DNA of 64,000 nt from an uncultured Clostridia bacterium (lineage in GTDB: Bacteria > Bacillota > Clostridia > Christensenellales > Borkfalkiaceae): positions 41,542-105,541 of the forward strand of contig CALVIN010000005.1 of assembly GCA_944330115.1 (NCBI GenBank), written 5' to 3'. Below the pieces are notes generated by a model, which worked only from the letters and a program-made list of their open reading frames with translations, made no database searches and was not told the origin of the DNA. Numbering within the stretch: position 1 is the first letter of the stretch; the number at the start of each line of letters is the position of its first letter. A program made the translations under genes and the position numbers. This document shows, piece after piece, positions 3,153 to 63,551 of this stretch.

Positions 3153-3556
3153 ATTACTTCTCCTTTTAATTTGCCGCGCGCGCATTCGCCGTGCCCGCTA
3201 TGGCATAGCGAATGGAAATAAAACGGGCCCGTCCCGGACAGGCGGACGGCGGTACAGATAGGGCGCGCCGCGCATATTTATTTTATTTTTTATCAAGTCC
3301 ATTTTATTATAATTTTAAAGAAAAATCAATTCATTGCGGCGTAAAATGCATGTGCCTGCCTTCTACGGTTTAATTTGGCCGCTCTACCGCAAAATATGCA
3401 GCTCTACCATGAGTAGAATGGCAGTTTTTGCCGCTTTTACGGGGCGCTCTGCGCCACAAGAGCGCGCCCGAAGCCCGCCGCAATGCAACGATATGCCGTC
3501 ATGCGGCAATTAGCCGCCATACAAATAAAAAATTCCGCACAAAAAATAATGCGCGG

Positions 3557-3638
3557 AATTTTAAATTTTAATTTAAATTTTAATTAAATTGAATTTTAAT
3601 TAAATTGAATTTTAATTTTAATTTTAATTTTATTTTTT
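3557..3638. repeat. A/T-only microsatellite-like tract (aattttaattaaatt type) next to the 3' end of rex
   Basis: About 80 bp contain only two G and no C. Internal periodic units are present (aattttaattaaattg x2, aatttt x4). Confidence 0.9.
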
Positions 3639-3668
3639 GCGCTTTTTATGGCGCGGAAATGACGCATT

Positions 3669-7964: not shown

Positions 7965-8173
7965 AAGTTACTTACGGGTTGTTTTATTTATATGTATCGC
8001 TATTTATATGCATCGTTATTTTTGATATGCTGCGTTATTTGGGGCATACTGCGCCGCCAAAGGCATATATATCCCGATCGGGTGGCATATATGCCGCAAT
8101 TAACGGCATGCGCGCCGCCTGCAAACGACGTACGCGCCGCCTGCAAACGACATACCCGCCCGCAGAGGGCAGG

Positions 8174-8611: not shown

Positions 8612-8685
8612 GTGCGTTTTTACCTTTTATTTTGCGGTATTTGCGGCATATTGCCGCACCAATGGGGCACGCGAGCTTGCGGCCG

Positions 8686-9859: not shown

Positions 9860-9982
9860 CACTAACCCTTCCGAGGCTCGCATACGCTCGCCCCACCTTC
9901 CCTATAGGGACGGCGAGAGCGGCTGCGCTGCTTGTGAAACCCCTCCGTCACTTCGCGACACCTCCCCTCAAAGGGGCGGTAA
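9860..9982 (+). repeat. Composite intergenic repeat (AACCCTTCCGAGGCTC module plus short GAAACCCCTCCGTCAC / CCTCCCCTCAAAGGGGCGG hairpin module)
   Basis: Related copies were seen by eye at 27008-27075 (inverted), 35089-35136, 43732-43795 and 61389-61636. Confidence 0.8.
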
Positions 9983-12970: not shown

Positions 12971-13414
12971 TTATATATAATTTGCCAGCGCGGAGATATC
13001 CAGCTTCCACTCCGACACGCGGTTGCGGCGGGCGTGCGCCTCGTTGGCCTCGCCGAGAGCTTTGCGGTATTCGCCATAGCTGCAGCCGTTGACCTGCATG
13101 AAGTGGTCCTCGGCGGCGCGCACGTTGCCCTTGAGCTGCGTGCGGCCGATGTGAATGACGGCGTGGCAGGCGGGGCACACGGCGATTATTGCCTTTAAGC
13201 GCTGCACGCAGTTCTTTTCGTCATACTCCCACTGCTCGTGCGCCTCCAGCCTGCTTGAGGGCGCGCCGCATATCATGCACTTCCCGCCCGCGCGGGCATA
13301 CACCTTTTTGCGCACGGCGTCCCACTGCGCCTTTGTGAGCAGGCTGCGAAGGTTTGAATACCAGCAGCTGTCCGGCACGAGCTCGAAATTTAATTTTAAT
13401 TTTTTATTTTCCAT
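12971..13414 (-). CDS. HNH-like zinc-finger nuclease-family protein
   Basis: GGKCMICGAPSSRLEAHEQWEYD...VCPACHAVIHIG shows CxxC...H...CxxCH spacing. The first ~10 codons (MENKKLKLNFE) are encoded by the A/T tract. Confidence 0.5.
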   Translation of the reverse strand: MENKKLKLNFELVPDSCWYSNLRSLLTKAQWDAVRKKVYARAGGKCMICGAPSSRLEAHEQWEYDEKNCVQRLKAIIAVCPACHAVIHIGRTQLKGNVRAAEDHFMQVNGCSYGEYRKALGEANEAHARRNRVSEWKLDISALANYI

Positions 13415-13570
13415 AAATTTATTTTTATTTTTTATAAAAATACAATTTTAATTTGATTTTTTTAATTGAATTTTTATACGATTTCAGTTCAATCGATTGA
13501 ACTTATTTTTATTTTATTTTCCGCAAAAAATTAAAAATAAAATAAATTTTAATTAAATATTTTAATTTAA
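13386..13570. repeat. A/T-rich tract between the glpK 3' end and the HNH gene start, with an internal palindrome TTCAATCGATTGAA
   Basis: About 185 bp, overwhelmingly A/T, reaching into the last codons of glpK and the first codons of the HNH gene. Confidence 0.85.
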
Positions 13571-15089: not shown

Positions 15090-15175
15090 AAAAAATAAAT
15101 TTAAAATAAAAAATAAAATAATTTAATTAAAATTTAATTTAATTAAAAATTGATTTTTTATTTTATATAATATAC
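15090..15175. repeat. A/T-only tract at the 3' end of the nitroreductase gene
   Basis: aaaaaataaatttaaaataaaaaataaaataatttaattaaaatttaatttaattaaaaattgatttttta overlaps the stop codon region. Confidence 0.85.
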
Positions 15176-15676
15176 GAATTTTTCCTTGCGGGGCTTGGGC
15201 TCGCGCTCTTCGGCGGCGTAGCCTATCACGCAGTTGCCTATGCCCTCGTAGTCGCCCTCTACGCCGAGGTCCTTTAAAAGGTTTTTGCCCTCATCGGTAT
15301 TAAAGGTCTCCTTGGCGCGATGTATCCAGCAGCTGCCCAGTCCCAGCGCGTGCGCGGCGTTGAGCATGTTGCCCATAACTAACGAGCCGTCGTATATATA
15401 GGTGTTGGCGCTTCTGTCGGCGAGCACCACCAAAACTGCGGGCGCGCCGTAGAAGGGATCGCCCTCCCTGCCCATAATTTGCGCGTTTATGGCGGAGAGC
15501 CTGTCGCGCACCTCCTTATTGGTCACCGCCAAAATTATGCAGGGCTGCCTGCCCATGCCGCTTGCGGCATACTCGCCCGCCTCTATCACTTCGTTCATAA
15601 GCTCCTCGGGGACGGGGTCGGGCCTGTACTTTTTGATGCTTCTGCGCGTTATCATATTTTCGACTATGGCGTTCAT
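15158..15676 (-). CDS. Nitroreductase family protein
   Basis: MNAIVENMITRRSIKKYRPDPVP...RQPC...HALGLGSCWI. The start is ATG 15676 with an AGGAGA SD; the track ORF begins 26 codons upstream. Confidence 0.8.
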   Translation of the reverse strand: MNAIVENMITRRSIKKYRPDPVPEELMNEVIEAGEYAASGMGRQPCIILAVTNKEVRDRLSAINAQIMGREGDPFYGAPAVLVVLADRSANTYIYDGSLVMGNMLNAAHALGLGSCWIHRAKETFNTDEGKNLLKDLGVEGDYEGIGNCVIGYAAEEREPKPRKEKFVYYIK

Positions 15677-16660: not shown

Positions 16661-16794
16661 AAATTAAAATTAAAAAATAATTAAAAAATAATTAAAAAAT
16701 AATTAAAAAATAATTAAATAAAAATTAAAATACATAATTTAATTAAATAATTTAATTGCAATTTAAATCAATTTTATTTTTTAAAACGCCGCTT
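16661..16794. repeat. A/T-only tract between convergent genes; 11-bp unit aaaaaataatt x4
   Basis: gaaattaaaattaaaaaataattaaaaaataattaaaaaataattaaaaaataattaaataaaaattaaaa... Confidence 0.9.
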
Positions 16795-16857
16795 TTGCGG
16801 CGAAAAGCTCAACCACGGTTTGCTCATACCGTTTCTCTCCTTTTGCTTTTTAAAGTA

Positions 16858-18307: not shown

Positions 18308-18388
18308 TTACCCCTTGAATTTTATTTTATAAGCGCCCTTAAAATGGCGTTGGTTGCGGCATATTGCCGCGTCAATTTGCATTTTGCC

Positions 18389-26192: not shown

Positions 26193-26728
26193 GTGCCCGA
26201 ACTGCCGGTTTTAAGGGAAGGCGCGCATTCCCCCTCTGCCGCAAAGTTTTGCAGGACCGGCCGAGAGATGGGCAACAATAATATTTAAAGGCCGAATTGG
26301 GCGGGCAGAGCCGCCCGCATACAGAGCATGTTAAACGGTCTGTCTATCAACGTGTGCGGGAGGGCGATGCAACGGCCGCAAAATAGCGAAGCCCACGGGT
26401 CTTTGAATGAGCTTTTTTATCTTGAAACTGCGTATCTTTATATCCTGAAACATTATCGGAAAAATTATCGGAAACATAATTGCGGAAATGTGCCGTAGCA
26501 TACGGCACATCAGACCTGCGCACACCGCGCGGGCGTACAGGAACGAGAATTTCGCAGTCGGGAGCAAAAAAGCCGCTCCTTACACCGCGCAGCACGGCGC
26601 GGCAGGAGTTTTAAGCGCAAGTGCGGAAGGGAAGCGCGCAGTTATTGGGCAACTGCAAACCGCACATAAGGAGCCGACTTATAAGGCGCTTTGATCTTGG
26701 CGCCGAAGCTCCGTGACTGTGTAAAAGT

Positions 26729-26768
26729 ACTCCCCTTGCGGCCAAAACCGCTCGGGGAGTGTTTTTTT
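26729..26768 (+). terminator. Intrinsic terminator ending the ncRNA candidate
   Basis: ACTCCCC-tt-GCGG-ccaaaa-CCGC-tc-GGGGAGT, then G and a T7 run. Confidence 0.75.
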
Positions 26769-26927
26769 ATAAAAATATAAGGGCAGATGTGCCGCAGGCA
26801 ACCCGGCCGCAGCCATTAGCGGCCGCAGGGAGCACCGTGGCCGCGGTGTTAAACGGTTATATAGTGTGGAATAAAAACGCCGTGCTTTTATAAGTGCGGA
26901 AAAACATCTTATAGTATGAAGGCAAAA

Positions 26928-26960
26928 TTACGGCGGAGCGATTTTCCTCGCTCCGCCGTA
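26928..26960 (-). terminator. Hairpin closing the minus-strand repeat block (convergent with the ncRNA terminator)
   Basis: ACGGCGGAGCG-attttcc-tCGCTCCGCCGT, T-rich on both sides. Confidence 0.4.
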
Positions 26961-27007
26961 TTTACATTTGCCCCTCCGCCTCCCCTTTAAGGACGAGTGC
27001 GCGGCAC

Positions 27008-27300
27008 ACCTTGCCGTCCCTATAGAGAAGGTGGCAGATGCGAGCACAGCGAGCATATGACGGAAGGGTTTATATATGCGCATTCTTTTAACCCTTCTGG
27101 CACGGCTGTGCGCGCCACCGTCTCGCGCGGTGCAAGGTAAACACCGCGCTTGGTCACCGTTCGCGCCTGACATATGCGCTCACTCATCTCGCTGAGGCAC
27201 GCACAATGGGTATCCATTGTGCTATGAAATGCCTTGCTCGTCCTTCAGGGGAGACGAGGGAATATGTTACGCCGCTCTCTCCGATACCTGCCCTCTGCAC
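27008..27300 (+). repeat. Partial copy (C) of the ~320-bp structured repeat plus an inverted AACCCTTCCG module
   Basis: Core 27125-27245: GCGCGGTG-caaggtaaa-CACCGCGC, TTGGTCACCGTTCGCGC, ATATGCGCTCACTCATCTC, GCACAATGG-gtat-CCATTGTGC, TATGAAATGCC. It is collinear with 31298-31420 and 61695-61815. Confidence 0.8.
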
Positions 27301-27307
27301 CCGTGCG

Positions 27308-27548
27308 GTGAAACCCCACCTTTAATTCCTCCCCTCAAAGGGGAGGTAAATTAGTAGTATGCCCCCTCAAAGGGGAGGTGGGTTGAGCGGACTGTGCCGC
27401 TCCTTCGAGGACGAGCGAGGCAAATGCGCGAAACTGTATAGCGCGAAACGCATAATAACGGGCGGGTGGGCGGGACCACTCCACCGCCCCTTTGAGGGGA
27501 GGTGGCGCGCGAAGTGCAACGGAGCGTGACGGAGGGGTTTCACCCTCC
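27308..27548. repeat. Cluster of GC-rich hairpin repeats (CCTCCCCTCAAAGGGGAGG x3 plus the long GAAACCCCTCCGTCAC module in inverted orientation)
   Basis: Hairpins at 27328-27347, 27361-27380 and 27483-27506; ...AACGGAGCGTGACGGAGGGGTTTCAC at 27509-27545. Confidence 0.85.
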
Positions 27549-27580
27549 CCACTCTGCCATAGCGCGGACAGGCCGCGCCA

Positions 27581-31133: not shown

Positions 31134-31170
31134 ATTTCATCTCCTGTAAGCACAATTATACCCGCCAATT

Positions 31171-31193
31171 ATTGTAATGTCAAGCATTACAAC
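31171..31193. promoter_or_regulatory. Palindromic operator candidate (copy 2), upstream of the Rrf2 gene
   Basis: ATTGTAATGTCAAGCATTACAAC. Confidence 0.6.
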
Positions 31194-31276
31194 CTGATTT
31201 TAGGTGTTTAAGTGGACAAAGGTAACCCTTTGGAAATGGTAAAGCGCGAGCATGGCACACCCTGCGTAAGCGCAAT

Positions 31277-31594
31277 TTTCCAAAATAAATATAATGTCGC
31301 AAGGCGGGGTCTCAAGCAATGTAAGGGCAACATTGCTTTCGGTCACCGTTCGCGCTTTTGTCTATGCGCTCACTCATCTCATTGCACACGAAAGGCGGGT
31401 GTCCGCCTTTCTATGAAACGTGCAATTCGTCCCGCCGCCGCAGGACCCTATTTGCTGCGGTCAGCAGGCTCACCGAGAGGGAATTGCCGCAACTATATAT
31501 TATGAGAGCATTTTAAGGTTGCGGCAAGGGGGAGCTGGCTCCCCAAATCTCACGGAAATTGTTCGGCAGCACCAGCCGAACAATTTCGTGAACC
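31277..31594 (+). repeat. Structured ~320-bp repeat, copy A (ends 2 nt from the stop codon of the minus-strand HD gene)
   Basis: Collinear with 61680-62019. Multiple hairpins are present, and compensatory differences between copies are listed in the findings. Confidence 0.85.
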
Positions 31595-31596
31595 TT

Positions 31597-32187
31597 TTAG
31601 ATTATCCCCTTCTCCAACTCGTCGAGGGTCAAGGTGTATGCCGGGATGAAATTTTCGATAAAATAGTTGACCGAGCGCATGTTGCGGGAGGTTACGTCGT
31701 CCCTGATGCTCTTTTCGGCCTTTTCAAACTCGGTGTTGCCGCAGCGGCGCTCTTCTAAGCACTTGATATATGCCGAGAGCCTGTCGGCCGCCTTTACTAT
31801 CTTCCACTCCTCGCTCGAGGTATCGGCCTTTACATAGGGCGCGAGCTCCTCCCTTATCTCTTCGGGAAGCGTTGATAAGAGCTTTTCGCACGCCTCGCCC
31901 TCGATATCCTTATACGCGCCCGTTATAGAGCGGTTGAAATACTTTATGGGCGTGGGCAGATCGCCCGTTATCACCTCGGGGCACTCGTGATAGATGGCGT
32001 ACAGCACGCACTTCTGGCTATCGACATTGCCGCCGAATATCTTATTTTCGATGATGGCAAGCGCGTGCGCGATGAACGCCACCTGCTGGGAGTGCTCCAT
32101 TATGTTCTCTTCGCGCACGGAGCGCATGAGCGACCACCGCCTGATATACTTCATTCTGTCCATAAAGGCATAAAAATTATAGGGCAT
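31597..32187 (-). CDS. HD-domain 5'-deoxynucleotidase (YfbR-like)
   Basis: MDRMKYIRRWSLMRSVREENIMEHSQQVAFIAHALA...YHECPEVITGDLPTP. Confidence 0.8.
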   Translation of the reverse strand: MPYNFYAFMDRMKYIRRWSLMRSVREENIMEHSQQVAFIAHALAIIENKIFGGNVDSQKCVLYAIYHECPEVITGDLPTPIKYFNRSITGAYKDIEGEACEKLLSTLPEEIREELAPYVKADTSSEEWKIVKAADRLSAYIKCLEERRCGNTEFEKAEKSIRDDVTSRNMRSVNYFIENFIPAYTLTLDELEKGII

Positions 32188-33905: not shown

Positions 33906-33950
33906 GGTGCGCTGCCGCAAAATTGCGGCAGCGCACCATATTTTTTATTT
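33906..33950 (+). terminator. Intrinsic terminator after thiT
   Basis: GGTGCGCTGCCGC-aaaatt-GCGGCAGCGCACC, then T-rich sequence. Confidence 0.8.
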
Positions 33951-34047
33951 GATTTTTATTTAAATTAAATTTATTTTTTTATTTTTTAATTTAATTAAAT
34001 TTAATTAAATTTAATTAAATTTAATTATTTTTTTAATTTATTTTTTT
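33939..34047. repeat. A/T-only tract between convergent genes; 11-bp unit aatttaattaa x4
   Basis: ...ttaatttaattaaatttaattaaatttaattaaatttaattatttttttaatttattttttt... Confidence 0.9.
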
Positions 34048-35088: not shown

Positions 35089-35214
35089 GTGGAACCCCTC
35101 CGTCACTTCGTGACACCTCCCCTCGAAGGGGCGGTACCAAATGCGGCAAGATTTACCTCCCCTTTGAGGGGAGGTGGCGTGCGAAGTACAACGGAGCACG
35201 ACGGAGGGGTTTCA
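35089..35214. repeat. Inverted pair of GC-rich hairpin repeats (MITE-like configuration)
   Basis: Left: GGAACCCCTCCGTCACTTCGTGACACCTCCCCTCGAAGGGGCGGT. Right: CCTCCCCTTTGAGGGGAGGTGGCGTGCGAAGTACAACGGAGCACGACGGAGGGGTTTC. The outer ends are inverted repeats of each other. Confidence 0.85.
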
Positions 35215-43731: not shown

Positions 43732-43885
43732 GGTGAAACCCCTCCGTCACGCTCCGTTATACTGCGCGTGCCACCTCCCCTCGAAGGGGAGGTAATATAG
43801 AAAGGAGACGAGGGGAGGCGCGGCCTCGAAGGGGAGGTAAATATAGAAAGGACGCGTACCCAAAGGGGAGGTGAATACAGAAAAG
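43732..43885 (+). repeat. GC-rich hairpin repeat (long variant) followed by about 3 degenerate tandem GAAGGGGAGGTAAATATAGAAAGGA units
   Basis: GTGAAACCCCTCCGTCACGCTCCGTTATACTGCGCGTGCCACCTCCCCTCGAAGGGGAGGT, then repeats at about 43783, 43826 and 43861. Confidence 0.85.
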
Positions 43886-44010: not shown

Positions 44011-44487
44011 ATGAGCGAAGAAAAGAAGCCCGAAGTTGAGGGCGAAAACGCAGGCGAAAATAAGGCCGAAGAACCCAAAAAAGAGGGAAAATTTTCCAGC
44101 TTTTTTAAGAAGATGGGGCAGAAAATAGACGATGCGGCGTATGACTCGCGCCTTTCATCCGACTTCAACAAAAAGCACCCCGAATATCACGTTTATACGG
44201 GCACGGGCGTGTTTGCTTCCAGCCCCGATGTGTATGTTGAGGAACACCTCGACGGCGAGGAGAAGTACGTTGTGGCGTACGGCACCGACGAAAACATAAA
44301 GGCGGGCTGCCTTATAAAGAAGGACAACAGCGCCACAGTCTATCACATAGCCGAGGTGACGCCCGCAACGCTCACCGTTGAATTTGAGGGCAAGACCAAC
44401 GAAAAGCCCGCCCAGAAGATAGTTTTGGGCGAAGAGGCCGAAAAGGTCGCCGTTATAAAGGTGGGCGACGAATTTTATAAAGTTTAA
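44011..44487 (+). CDS. Hypothetical protein (acidic/Lys-rich N-terminus, beta-rich C-domain)
   Basis: 158-aa ORF. GGAGGT SD 6 nt upstream of the ATG. No family recognised. Confidence 0.5.
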   Translation: MSEEKKPEVEGENAGENKAEEPKKEGKFSSFFKKMGQKIDDAAYDSRLSSDFNKKHPEYHVYTGTGVFASSPDVYVEEHLDGEEKYVVAYGTDENIKAGCLIKKDNSATVYHIAEVTPATLTVEFEGKTNEKPAQKIVLGEEAEKVAVIKVGDEFYKV

Positions 44488-44495
44488 ACATCCGC

Positions 44496-44618
44496 AAAAA
44501 ATCAAAAAATAATTAAAAAATCAAAAAATAATTAAATTTAATTTAATTTTATTTAATTTTATTTAATTTAAAAAATAATTAAATAATTTAATTAAATAAT
44601 TTACCGTAAAATATTTAA
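44496..44618. repeat. A/T-only tract between a stop codon and a bidirectional terminator
   Basis: atcaaaaaataattaaaa x2, then atttaatttt x2, then aataatttaattaaat... Confidence 0.9.
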
Positions 44619-51827: not shown

Positions 51828-51890
51828 AAAATATATTTAAAAAATAATTAAATTAAATTTAATTAAATTAAATTTTTAATTTATTTTTTA
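51828..51890. repeat. A/T-only tract abutting the stop codon of the QueD-like gene
   Basis: aaaatatatttaaaaaataattaaattaaatttaattaaattaaatttttaatttatttttta. Confidence 0.9.
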
Positions 51891-52454
51891 TGCCTTTTTA
51901 TAGCCGCACTTGGGGCATACTCCCTTTTCGTTGAGGGCTATGCCGCAGAGAGGGCAGCGCTCGATGTTGTTGTGCGTGTCAAATTCCGCCGATGCCGCGT
52001 TTACGCCGCTGGTAAAGGTTATCTTTGCGATGTTCAGCTTGTCCTTCAGGAGGTCGTAAACTATCTTTATCATGCCCTCCACCGTCATCGTCTCCTTGGT
52101 TACGACGAGGCGGCAGTCGGGGTATGCCGTGGCGAGTTCCGTTTTGAATGCCGCGCCCTTCATCTTGTTCTGCGGCGCGCCGTTTTTTATGCCCTGCTTT
52201 TCATATACTTCCAAAATTGCGGGCAGAAGGGGGTCGTCCTCGCGCAGAATGAGCGCATGGTCGAAGTTTTTGAGCACCTCCCACGCCGTCTTTTTTATTT
52301 CGTTGCAGGGGAAAACCATGTTTACGCCCTCTTCTATGCTGTCCTCTACCTCTATCGTGAGTATGCCGGTGTGGCCGTGCAGATACTGCGCCTCGCCCTT
52401 AAAGCCGTAAAATCTGTGCGCATATTGTAAATCTAATGTAGTGATGCTTCTCAT
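51888..52454 (-). CDS. 6-pyruvoyl-tetrahydropterin synthase / QueD-family protein with a C-terminal zinc ribbon
   Basis: AHRFYGFKGEAQYLHGHTG (HGH motif). C-terminal CPLCG...CPKCG. Confidence 0.65.
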   Translation of the reverse strand: MRSITTLDLQYAHRFYGFKGEAQYLHGHTGILTIEVEDSIEEGVNMVFPCNEIKKTAWEVLKNFDHALILREDDPLLPAILEVYEKQGIKNGAPQNKMKGAAFKTELATAYPDCRLVVTKETMTVEGMIKIVYDLLKDKLNIAKITFTSGVNAASAEFDTHNNIERCPLCGIALNEKGVCPKCGYKKA

Positions 52455-53935: not shown

Positions 53936-54295
53936 GCAAGCTCACGCAAAATCTTTGCCTGCGGCAAATCTTTTGCCGTGAATTTATAATAGTGTCGCAG
54001 GGCGCTTAACGCCCGAACTAAATTCGGGCTACGCCCTCCGTCATTATTTATTTGGGAAAGGGTTCACGAAAATCTTTTGCCTGCGGCAAAATTCTTTTCG
54101 TGATATTTATAATATTGTCGCAGGGCGCTTAACGCCCGAAATAAATTCGGGCTGCGCCCTCCGGCATTATTTATTTTGGAAATGAGCTCACGGCAAAATC
54201 TTTGCCTGCGGCAAATCTTTTGCCGTGAAATCTATTTGGTCGTGAAAGTGCAAAACGTGCGAACTGAATTCGGGCTGCACTTTCTCGGCAAAATC
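53936..54295. repeat. Tandem repeat of 121-124 bp units, about 2.8 copies, each made of two hairpin modules, between nusG and rplK
   Basis: Units start near 53941, 54062 and 54186. Module 1: CACG(G)CAAAATCTTTGCC-tgc-GGCAAATCTTTTGCCGTG. Module 2: AGGGCGC-ttaa-CGCCCGAA-ataaa-TTCGGGCTGCGCCCT. The third unit is diverged. Confidence 0.85.
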
Positions 54296-54354
54296 AATGT
54301 AAAAAATGCCGTCAGTTGGGGCATACTGCCGCGCCAAACGCAAAACGCCGCCCT

Positions 54355-61146: not shown

Positions 61147-61308
61147 AATTATTTAATTATTTTTTGCGTAATTTTATATAGCGAAAAAATATATTTATTT
61201 TTAAATTAAATAAATTGTATTAAAATTGCCGTTTTTTTTATTAAATAATTAAATAAATTGTATTTAAAAATCAAGTATTTTAATTGAATAAATTTTAACA
61301 AATAAAGC
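61135..61308. repeat. A/T-rich tract between the rng stop codon and its terminator
   Basis: About 170 bp, almost all A/T (aaataatttaaaattatttaattatttttt...aaattaaataaattgtattaaaatt...). Confidence 0.85.
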
Positions 61309-61388: not shown

Positions 61389-61636
61389 TAACCCTTCCGA
61401 GGCTCACATATGTTCGCCCCCCCACCTCCCCTTCGAGGGGAGGTGGATTTGCCGAAGCGTTAGCGAGGCAAAGACGGATGGGTTTCACTTCCAAGCAAAT
61501 AATAGCGCGAGGCTGAATTTAGTTCAGCCGTTACGCGCAAAACAATATTTGCAACTCCAATTTACTGAACGGTGAAACCCCTCCGTCGCTCCTCACCGAG
61601 TTCGTCGCGCCACCTCCCGCTCAAAGGGGAGGTGAC
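61389..61636. repeat. GC-rich hairpin repeat cluster (AACCCTTCCGAGGCTC module, CCACCTCCCCTTCGAGGGGAGGTGG hairpin, degenerate inverted module, long plus-orientation module)
   Basis: 61389-61446, 61473-61489 and 61571-61636 match modules at 9860-9982, 27308-27548, 35089-35214 and 43732-43795. Confidence 0.85.
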
Positions 61637-61679: not shown

Positions 61680-62019
61680 TTTCAAAATAAATATCGCAAG
61701 GCGGGGTCTCAAGCAATGTAAGGGCAACATTGCTTTCGGTCACCGTTCGCACGGGACGTATGTGCTCACTCATCTCATTGCACACGAAAGGCGGGTGTCC
61801 GCCTTTCTATAAAATGTGCCGCTCGTCCCAATTTGCGCATACCTGCGCATCTGCCGTTTCCCTTCGGGAGCCTCGGCAGGGCAGCGCTTCGCTCGCGCAC
61901 CAAAGGGGGAATTGCCCCGATTATATAATATGTGAGCCCTTATAAATCGGGGCAAGAGGGAGCTGGCTCCCCAAAATTCACGAAGATTTTTCGGCGGCAC
62001 CAGCCGAAAAATCTGTGAG
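61680..62019 (+). repeat. Structured ~320-bp repeat, copy B (ends about 4 nt from the stop codon of the minus-strand gene 62023..62460)
   Basis: Collinear with 31277-31594. The 5' 120 nt are nearly identical, the central part is variable, and the 3' hairpins are conserved through compensatory changes. Confidence 0.85.
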
Positions 62020-62022
62020 CTG

Positions 62023-62460
62023 TTAAAGGTATCTCTTCAACTTCCTTTCAAAGCCCTCTTCCAAAGCTATCAGCTGCTTTAAGAGTTCAGCCACCTCGCC
62101 GTCCATTTCGCCTGCGTCCGTTTGAGTGGTTTTAAGGCTGGTTATACCCGTCATCGTGCCCTTTATCATCATCTGCGCGATGTGCTGCGAGGAATTGTCA
62201 GCGACGGTATTCATCTTTATCGCCGACCACATCATGGCCTTTTTTACGGGGTTAGGCTCCTTCACCTCCACGCCCAGCGCCTGCGCGAGCTGCGCCGCCC
62301 TGCCCGATATATGTTCATACTCCTCGTGTTCGCGCATGATCTCCTCGCGAATGCCCTCGTCCTCCACTTCGGGCAGGATATCCGATATAGATTGCAGCGC
62401 GAGCTGCGCGTTGCGGTAAATTTCGGCGAGAACCTCGCCTTCGCACTTATTCTTTTCCAT
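62023..62460 (-). CDS. Hypothetical all-helical protein
   Basis: 145 aa with predicted helical heptad-like composition (LAEIYRNAQLALQSISDILPEV...). No family recognised. Confidence 0.45.
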   Translation of the reverse strand: MEKNKCEGEVLAEIYRNAQLALQSISDILPEVEDEGIREEIMREHEEYEHISGRAAQLAQALGVEVKEPNPVKKAMMWSAIKMNTVADNSSQHIAQMMIKGTMTGITSLKTTQTDAGEMDGEVAELLKQLIALEEGFERKLKRYL

Positions 62461-63392: not shown

Positions 63393-63551
63393 AATTTTTA
63401 TACCGTAAAGGCGCGGCGCGTGCAGTTTTGCACGCGCCGCTTTACTTTTTATTATATAGTTATTTTGCCGTTTTATTATATTATTTTGCCGTTAGTTCAG
63501 CCATATTGCGGCACTAATTGAATATACCGCTATGCCGTCGCAAAATTTTAA

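Follow-up and report, generated by a model that had tools for sequence, protein, structure and literature searches.

Does a dispersed bacterial repeat whose hairpins differ in sequence from copy to copy, yet keep their pairing, represent a structured RNA or a mobile piece of DNA? The question is raised by a stretch of 64,000 nucleotides (the window) from an uncultured Clostridia bacterium (GenBank assembly GCA_944330115.1, contig CALVIN010000005.1, positions 41,542 to 105,541), in which a first-pass annotation had described an element of about 320 bp in three copies, namely A at 31277-31594, B at 61680-62019 and C, whose core we place at about 27120-27245. All three copies are present in one orientation. 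The third had been considered partial, but it holds the complete core, the only portion of the element, approximately 125 nt, that is a widely conserved motif. The notion of a single 320-bp element has to be abandoned, as its modules are found apart and in other orders and orientations. For the core we favour, at what we judge an even chance of being right, a structured RNA domain of about 125 nt that binds protein or forms a defined fold and has been propagated by recombination.

The observations made within the window hold up well. The conserved blocks recur, GGTCACCGTTCGC having three exact occurrences and TGCGCTCACTCATCTC three with one mismatch or none (0.32 expected by chance), and all six stem comparisons drawn between the copies are correct. 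Across the 27 modelled pairs of the core, A and C differ by 14 double (compensated) changes, no single change and one broken pair, while A and B differ by one double change. Compared with shuffled sequence, the copies have a much better fold whichever strand is taken, with z values of -6.1 and -6.8 for A and -4.6 for B. A covariance model of the core, described below, finds just these three copies in the 64 kb, at 114-121 bits, with the next match at 11 bits.

Copies are abundant outside the window. A pattern of two conserved blocks, scanned over one genome per bacterial species, matched at least 110 stretches, which confirms that the element is multi-copy. From an 88-sequence alignment of copies trimmed to their common part (115-132 nt) we built a covariance model, R1, which recovers at least 128 core copies in 724 kb (100 stretches, namely the window and 99 loci, the latter given L numbers here). 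Among the matches listed, all hosts are metagenome-assembled uncultured Clostridia from animal guts, their metagenome-assembled genomes (MAGs) being labelled Candidatus Coproplasma, Candidatus Scatosoma, or uncultured Christensenella or Christensenellaceae, and there are several motif-bearing contigs per genome, for example 11 contigs of MAG CANREQ01. The motif reaches at least 10 copies per genome. Core copies frequently lie at contig ends, and the repeat explains why assemblies of these genomes break at core sites, whether it acts at the RNA or at the DNA level. Seventeen of the 128 R1 matches lack the exact search pattern; in the full-length ones among them the junction blocks differ at a few positions, and the weakest or truncated ones have degenerate blocks or lack them.

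Read on the minus strand of the window, the core runs from 5' GGGACGAG through helix P3a, a pyrimidine-rich bulge, P3b, GAGAUGA, P2, GGUGACCGA and P1 to GAGAA at the 3' end. Three covarying helices, P3, P2 and P1, meet at near-invariant, purine-rich junction strands (GGGACGAG, GAGAUGAGUGAG, CGAACGGUGACCGA and GAGAA), and approximately 35 unpaired nucleotides of the core are near-invariant. P1 comprises 8 bp closed by the loop GUUGYCCUUAC. The 5' arm of P2 consists of G-C, U-A, G.A, A.G and GCGC, and after a variable loop of 6-11 nt its 3' arm consists of GCGC, G.A, A.G, A-U and C-G. In the 88-sequence alignment, standard pairs make up 94.8% of pair cells, as against 69.6% after shuffling and 24-49% when the partners are slid by 1-3 columns, and 625 cells are double-changed, as against 193 after shuffling. 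The figures for the 128 copies are much the same: 94.9% of helix cells are paired (69.7% shuffled, 25-47% in the slid controls), double changes occur at 25 of the 27 pairs, and there are 850 double-changed cells versus 254 after shuffling, a number that none of 500 shuffles reached. The helix covariation is well above these controls, as is characteristic of a structured non-coding RNA motif, and the proposal that the compensatory changes reflect selection on secondary structure is borne out by covariation on this scale, which is also seen between orthologous copies at one locus.

The junction itself is not simply single-stranded. Two of its strands pair with one another and lengthen P2 into an irregular helix: the U-A pair beside the G.A tandem is replaced by C-G in six of the 17 matches lacking the search pattern, and the G.A/A.G tandem is swapped for Watson-Crick pairs, CU/AG, GC/GC or AA/UU (at L036:4653, L040:3356 and L005:1299). 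These matched exchanges indicate that the two longest blocks previously described as single-stranded in fact face each other. The tandem sheared G.A pairs give P2 the style of a loop E or K-turn, and surfaces of this type usually bind protein or form tertiary contacts. The outer GAGAU can be opposed to GGUGA (G.A, A.G, U.U) in a loop-E or C/D-box-like arrangement, at positions that are invariant and show no covariation. As a K-turn proper, the G.A pairs next to P2 do not qualify, because the adjoining pairs, G-C and U-A, of which one covaries, leave no room for a 3-nt bulge. Mutual information over the copies detected no contacts beyond the helices; with junctions that stay constant, covariation between tertiary partners cannot show.

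The P2 loop is hypervariable, with 83 stem-plus-loop variants in 118 copies (e.g. window 61748-61756). Around one third of P2 loops have (A/U/C)CGUCCC at their end, which complements the 5' GGGACG of the same core, and an optional pseudoknot could form in these copies; because it is confined to this third, we do not regard the complementarity as a general feature.

Covariation among dispersed copies might in principle arise without any host function. Under this alternative the core is a selfish repeat, and its structure results from gene conversion among a limited set of helix variants that are perfect palindromes. The same helix variants (e.g. P1 CACGGCG/CGCCGUG) do recur with different partners within and between genomes, and double changes occur nearly without single-step intermediates, as in the comparison of A with C. 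Copies at fixed loci bear directly on this. At the same site of an integrative mobilisable element in L050 and L083, the flanks align on both sides and the core differs by 8 double changes, 1 single change and 1 broken pair out of 27, while the conserved junction strands are identical; the core has the tRNA-Gln attachment region on one side and on the other a convergent tyrosine integrase gene, followed by a relaxase-like gene, and the integrase gene is roughly 70-75% identical between the two (estimated by eye from the alignment). A second orthologous pair, L058 and L098, differs by two compensated pairs, both in P3a, and copy C is 98% conserved among strains represented in two other metagenome assemblies. 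Compensation in place at both orthologous pairs, together with the conservation of copy C, points to purifying selection on the fold, beyond the similarity expected of recent copies. Junction strands that stay identical while every helix changes in orthologous copies, next to an integrase gene that has itself diverged so far, are hard to reconcile with a selfish repeat, as is the replacement of the tandem G.A by Watson-Crick pairs only in matched form. The strand and tRNA associations considered below argue in the same direction. The complete replacement of an intergenic cassette within one species, also described below, is a point in favour of selfish spread, but overall we find this the least credible of the explanations considered here.

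The integrative mobilisable element at tRNA-Gln (L050:944-3816, and L083) encodes a 431-aa tyrosine-integrase-like open reading frame and a 349-aa relaxase-like one, both recognised from motifs by eye. Three TGTGGGG direct repeats abut the 5' end of the core and are possible arm-type sites. Copy C, for its part, is set in a non-coding stretch of about 1.3 kb (26250-27580) packed with hairpin modules, and the strain versions of this stretch differ by a 12-bp and a 4-bp indel.

Which strand carries the signal? The first-pass annotation had read the element on the plus strand, but the purine-rich junctions and the tandem G.A pairs favour the minus strand, as on the opposite strand the G.A pairs become C.T mismatches. 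Genomic context agrees. Of the 128 cores, 23 lie within 300 nt of a tRNA gene, whereas the mean for random placement in these loci is 4.4 and the maximum 9, and in all 23 the minus-strand sense of the core matches that of the nearby tRNA gene. Promoter-like sites aimed into the core are more frequent in the sense (14) than in the antisense direction (4), and in L029, L031 and L055 the core is positioned between a consensus promoter and a tRNA. The reported position near gene ends likewise extends to the family: the gene upstream shares the strand of the core in 63 cases versus 38, and the one downstream is convergent in 63 versus 38. Most likely, the core would be transcribed, and read as RNA from the minus strand of the window.

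The tRNA-linked copies take two forms. In the first, the core is within a partial tRNA copy upstream of an intact tRNA. Seven tRNA-Arg(ACG) loci (L002, L017, L019, L029, L038, L063 and L100) and two tRNA-Val(GAC) loci (L031 and L101) share a single layout, in which a consensus promoter precedes a duplicate of tRNA positions 1-26; the core comes next, then an anticodon arm, copied or mimicked, and, beyond a short spacer, the intact tRNA. At the tRNA-Pro loci L055 and L010 the partial copy extends through the anticodon arm, and the core occupies the U47 position of the variable loop, with a T-arm-like hairpin after it. In the second form, the core is downstream of the tRNA (Leu in L011, L013 and L042; Arg(ACG) in L049, L105 and L090; Arg(CCG) in L028), where the tRNA and its terminator come first and an antisense copy of the tRNA 3' end separates them from the core; at the Leu and Arg(ACG) loci the core is followed by a sense T-arm, acceptor strand and CCA, and by a second terminator where the sequence is long enough. 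The joints of these tRNA chimeras coincide exactly with the core ends. Both layouts would fit a single crossover in which a tRNA gene recombined with a small circle, or with a duplicated segment, that bore a tRNA fragment and the core. A group I or group II intron in the tRNA was considered and rejected, as the supposed exons are truncated copies beside an intact tRNA and no intron model matches. Nor is the core a tRNA or transfer-messenger RNA itself: ARAGORN recognises no cloverleaf in it, calling only the intact neighbours in the loci and no tRNA in the window.

These same junctions lend themselves to an explanation at the DNA level, in which the core is the single-stranded DNA recognition structure of a non-autonomous element (REP/REPIN-, PATE- or attC-like) that is mobilised in trans by a strand-specific HUH/Y1 transposase or a recombinase whose gene lies elsewhere in the genome, the hairpins being kept for the enzyme. 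Partial tRNA duplications stand beside some copies, as they do at integration sites, and a tRNA-Gln attachment region and a tyrosine integrase flank one copy. The many copies per genome (the 11 contigs of one MAG noted above), the contigs that often break at copies, the precise ends, an allele differing by presence or absence of the core and the tandem arrays in L010 are all as expected of such an element, and tandem G.A pairs are stable in DNA as well as in RNA. However, the protein neighbours in 110 loci, in which we looked for TnpB, IscB, reverse transcriptase or an integrase partner, include no recurrent candidate: what recurs is housekeeping families and synteny, and the neighbouring genes are otherwise unrelated (ABC transporter, LRR protein, ROK/PMI, AdhE, aminotransferase). 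As far as neighbours can tell, this argues against an end derived from an insertion sequence (IS), and against a TnpB, IscB or IS110 guide RNA encoded alongside its protein. The earlier proposal of an IS200/IS605 or PATE origin is likewise not supported, with neither Y1, TnpB nor any other transposase recurrent among the neighbours in these loci, and scans of viral contigs with exact and relaxed patterns, and blastn against plasmids and phages, returned no match to the motif. Further, the core lacks terminal inverted repeats or a variable target duplication, and its orthologous copies, retained between species with compensatory change, attest to long-term retention and not turnover. The co-orientation with all 23 tRNA genes and with upstream genes is most simply an effect of transcription, though a replication-strand bias could mimic it, and approximately 35 near-invariant unpaired nucleotides exceed the needs of known transposase end sites. 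We regard mobilisation as single-stranded DNA as unlikely. A classical miniature inverted-repeat transposable element was also rejected, because the core ends, GGGACGAG and GAGAA, do not form an inverted repeat and the copies are without variable direct repeats at their flanks.

Several observations nonetheless weigh against the RNA domain that we favour. First, G.U cells (62) are in no clear excess over A.C cells (46), which is unusual for RNA and would also fit selection on DNA hairpins, or the swapping of helices by recombination; the proponent of single-stranded DNA can count this as support. Second, the invariance of the junction blocks is in part built in, because the scan pattern required those blocks. 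Third, a promoter-like site lies within 220 nt upstream in only 14 of 99 copies, and that of copy B falls under the scan threshold. Fourth, a closing helix of at least 6 bp (P0) encloses the core in 30 of 111 copies where 19 are expected, a modest enrichment; the arrangement in copy A, where P0 makes the core the loop of a terminator-like hairpin, is consequently not general, and we rejected P0 plus a U-tract as a common, terminator-embedded design.

Could the RNA instead be catalytic, or sense a ligand? Ribozymes and aptamers typically show a compact multi-helix junction in which the purines are near-invariant and the helices vary, and the core might be a new self-cleaving or self-processing ribozyme, or an aptamer controlling the P0 terminator stem. 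The hammerhead consensus is CUGAUGA, stem II and GAAA, and the series GAUGAG, helix and CGAA in the core resembles it, with tandem G.A pairs stacked on the helix in both. The head-to-tail tandem units of L010 are compatible with a self-processing RNA, and P0 and the U-rich tail of copy A would make a terminator only with the core folded. On the other hand, GA replaces C3-U4 and GGUGACCGA replaces GAAA, and the core has neither G12-A13-A14 nor a UH cleavage site; with its defining nucleotides absent and no Rfam match, the hammerhead reading was dropped. Searches of copies A and C against Rfam 15 gave, at E-values up to 10, only matches at chance level (Magnesium-II, mir-8186 and snoU13 being the best), with no ribozyme or riboswitch family among them. 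The Rfam check suggested earlier thus ended without a significant match for the copies, HEARO, the IS605-orfB motifs and introns included. As to ligand sensing, there is no consistent downstream gene class, and P0 with a U-tract is found in a minority of copies; a riboswitch was rejected for want of a coherent gene set, a co-oriented downstream gene being the rarer case. A catalytic or ligand-sensing RNA is accordingly quite improbable in our view. The only Rfam family above threshold in the window is a ribosomal protein L10 leader (RF00557; 50007-50158, minus strand, 69.2 bits).

If the core is a structured RNA domain, what is the rest of the 320-bp unit? Besides the core, copies A and B contain RE, a long hairpin beside the stop codon; a GGGGAGC/GCTCCCC hairpin; M2, with an AT-rich loop; a CAATTTGCGC motif; and LE, the end with AATGTCGCAAGGCG. 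Motifs for LE, M2a, M2b, RE1 and REh have 67-191 matches in 784 kb, several being commoner than the core, and their order and orientation around the core vary; for 47 of the 128 cores no such module lies within 330 nt. The sister genomes L058 and L098 have the core between M2 and RE, reversed relative to both. The unit is hence a mosaic of short palindromic extragenic modules in variable order, of the REP/BIME type. An additional, core-less LE-M2-RE composite of 195 bp is present in L098 (4250-5400) and absent from L058 (4600-5700); it directly follows another composite, and a shared hairpin end, TTTTGTGAG, is repeated at the joint and is the only repeat there.

Locus A offers a view of how such mosaics change. 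In contigs from other samples the HD/YfbR-like protein is 100% identical, and the Rrf2 promoter is identical in the four contigs that reach it, but the spacer comes in two alleles. Allele 1, that of the window, has the core; allele 2 (L111, L114, L115 and L116, and the short L113 as far as its sequence goes) does not. Allele 2 keeps the module order, and every stem in it is different but compensated. Where the window has GGCGGG, the core, CCCCGCC and a U-rich tail, the corresponding part of allele 2 reads GCGCAGGG-AAA-CCCUGC and then UUAUUAUUUU, which has the shape of an ordinary intrinsic terminator. The comparison places the core of copy A in the apical loop of a terminator-like hairpin, with P0 as its stem. 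Between window positions 31134-31596 and L111:2407-2769 (likewise L114-L116), the alleles have about 62% column identity within one species, and their flanks differ only around the stop codon (TAA versus TGA). From sequence comparison, this suggests replacement of the whole cassette by recombination. The core, in turn, behaves as a cassette with precise ends, found in terminator-like loops, between repeat modules and inside partial tRNA copies that would be co-transcribed with the intact tRNA.

The layout of the three copies can be followed on the minus strand. Core A (31309-31433; R1 score 117.9 bits) begins with 5' GGGACGAA and continues through P3a/P3b, GAGAUGA, P2, GGUGACCGA and P1 to GAGAC at its 3' end. 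Core B (61706-61829; 114.1 bits) carries a compensated P2 pair, GCAC/GUGC as opposed to GCGC/GCGC in A, and in core C (27120-27244; 121.4 bits), which is complete, all helices differ from those of A with compensation. Copies A and B had been reported to end close to stop codons, and they do so, 4-7 nt from those of minus-strand genes (31597 and 62023). In copy A, the RE hairpin (31551-31590), a 13-bp stem with an A-run and a U-run resembling a bidirectional terminator, is 7 nt past the stop codon of the HD/YfbR-like gene (31597-32187, minus strand), and its stem is fully different yet compensated in allele 2 and in copy B. It is followed by the small hairpin GGGGAGC-CA-GCUCCCC (31529-31545), a separate module that reads GAGGAAC/GUUCCUC in allele 2, and by the M2 hairpin (31484-31527), TTGCCGCAAC...GTTGCGGCAA, whose arms covary between A, B and allele 2. 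M2 contains a sigma-70-like site, TTGCCG-17-CATAAT, directed toward the core and located by a promoter scan at 31527-31499. A putative leader, GGCAAUUCCCUCUCGGUGAGCC..., with a C/U-rich start, extends from the promoter-like site to the core (31434-31498), and after the core come the 3' strand of P0 (31303-31309, CCCCGCC), which pairs with GGCGGG at 31431-31436 to form the LE hairpin stem, and the LE U-rich tail (31280-31302, UUGCGACAUUAUAUUUAUUUUGG), terminator-like from its sequence and from comparison with allele 2. Copy B has its RE hairpin at 61979-62017, 5 nt past the stop of a 145-aa gene (62023-62460, minus strand), its M2 hairpin at 61912-61955 (TTGCCCCGATT...AATCGGGGCAA), with TTGCCC-17-CATATT recognised by eye on the minus strand, and its LE tail at 61680-61705 (CCCCGCCUUGCGAUAUUUAUUUUGAAA). 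Assemblies of other samples break at the RE of copy B, and the strain comparison at this locus yielded contig breaks.

Taken in order on the minus strand, stop codon, RE, small hairpin, promoter-like M2, a leader of about 60 nt, a stem-enclosed core and a U-rich tail look like the layout of a small-RNA gene in A and B, for which a transcript of approximately 210-235 nt is predicted. The leader after the M2 promoter-like site begins GGCAAUUC(A/C)CC(U/C)C (window 31434-31483 and 61830-61911, and M2 modules in the loci). This C/U-rich start resembles an anti-Shine-Dalgarno seed, and the core-less composites could encode regulatory RNAs of about 90 nt.

Searches of the full-text literature by sequence strings and keywords found no description of the motif, only primer coincidences and unrelated papers, and its closest described counterparts are the bcr1-type repeats and the REP/BIME or BOX mosaics. 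The bcr1 repeat of the Bacillus cereus group is a lineage-specific, interspersed intergenic element of about 155 bp, transcribed into a multi-hairpin RNA with compensatory changes and lacking an internal transposase; 5-bp direct repeats flank it, and its structure decays in some strains (PMC3184786). The core is likewise a lineage-specific, interspersed intergenic repeat of a Firmicute and is no longer than about 155 bp, but it has no target duplication, keeps a near-invariant junction across many species, is retained at orthologous sites and is strictly associated with tRNA genes. REP/BIME of Enterobacteria and BOX/SPRITE of the pneumococcus resemble the unit in being extragenic, often at gene 3' ends, and made of mixed short hairpin modules, some terminator-like; SPRITE has been listed as resembling a Rho-independent terminator (PMC3184786). 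REP units, however, are simple hairpins of about 35 nt, and none of these families has a 125-nt three-helix junction with some 35 conserved unpaired nucleotides. The IS200/IS605 PATEs and the omega-RNAs of TnpB and IscB are also strand-specific, hairpin-rich, non-coding and multi-copy, without terminal inverted repeats, but no tnpA, tnpB or iscB is adjacent or recurrent in the 110 loci around the cores, the core does not match the Rfam models HEARO and IS605-orfB-I/II, and it is embedded in hairpin loops and tRNA copies instead of being bounded by the LE and RE hairpins of an IS. ROOL and GOLLD RNAs have conserved junction nucleotides and covarying helices, their function is unknown and they are frequently found beside tRNA genes; they measure 500-800 nt, are usually single-copy and often reside in prophages. 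At about 125 nt and at least 10 copies per genome, absent from the viral contigs scanned and matching no Rfam model, theirs included, the core differs from them. The core family stands apart through its invariant junction of several helices, its retention at orthologous sites and its strict linkage to tRNA.

The window contains other repeats. AT-rich quasi-tandem tracts, TTAATTAAAT-like, nearly pure A/T and with a period of about 10-11, fill many intergenic spacers (3552-3647, 13381-13568, 15094-15183, 16661-16796, 33933-34046, 44483-44613, 51828-51900 and 61190-61279) and may represent promoter regions of curved-DNA or UP-element-like type. A second family of repeats consists of the hairpin CCTCCCCTYRAGGGGAGG(T), frequently in pairs, near copies B and C and elsewhere (9954-9981, 27321-27348, 27476-27505, 35109-35136, 35148-35177, 43767-43794 and 61417-61446). 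Three tandem units of about 123 bp at 53946-54280, each with TATAATAGTGTCGCAGGGCG... and a hairpin, resemble the LE module (AATGTCGCAAGGCGGGG) of A and B, and a 41-nt repeat centred on the palindrome TTGCGGCATATTGCCGC has five copies (8021-8061, 8623-8663, 18336-18376, 54298-54338 and 63478-63518).

How might such a domain work and spread? Under the interpretation that we favour, the core would be read from the minus strand as an RNA domain within terminator and promoter mosaics and tRNA transcription units, where it may bind a protein, or stabilise or mark the transcript. It would spread by recombination between copies, through cassette replacement, tandem duplication and Campbell-type integration of fragments, and not by a transposase of its own. 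A bolder version, which we consider possible but not probable, is that the family constitutes a previously unrecognised class of small ornate RNA: a tRNA-linked, multi-copy three-helix cassette with a loop-E/K-turn-like junction, grafted into hairpin loops, terminators and tRNA scaffolds, and having a dedicated biochemical role such as recruitment of a specific protein, self-assembly or RNA-processing catalysis. In that version the family might even spread at the RNA level, which would account for the insertions at single-stranded sites of folded tRNAs (between positions 26 and 27, and in the variable loop).

Dispersed bacterial repeats are usually dismissed as selfish DNA, but this family carries the signature of a functional RNA fold, namely a junction that is invariant, helices that covary freely and copies conserved at orthologous sites, clade-wide in uncultured gut Clostridia and tied to tRNA transcription units. 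The R1 covariance model can be used to annotate the motif. Should the core act at the DNA level, it would represent a new kind of structure-dependent mobile cassette without a visible transposase. If it is a functional RNA domain, it would add a structured RNA class in a poorly studied part of the gut microbiome, and would provide a natural example of a portable module grafted onto terminators and tRNA scaffolds.

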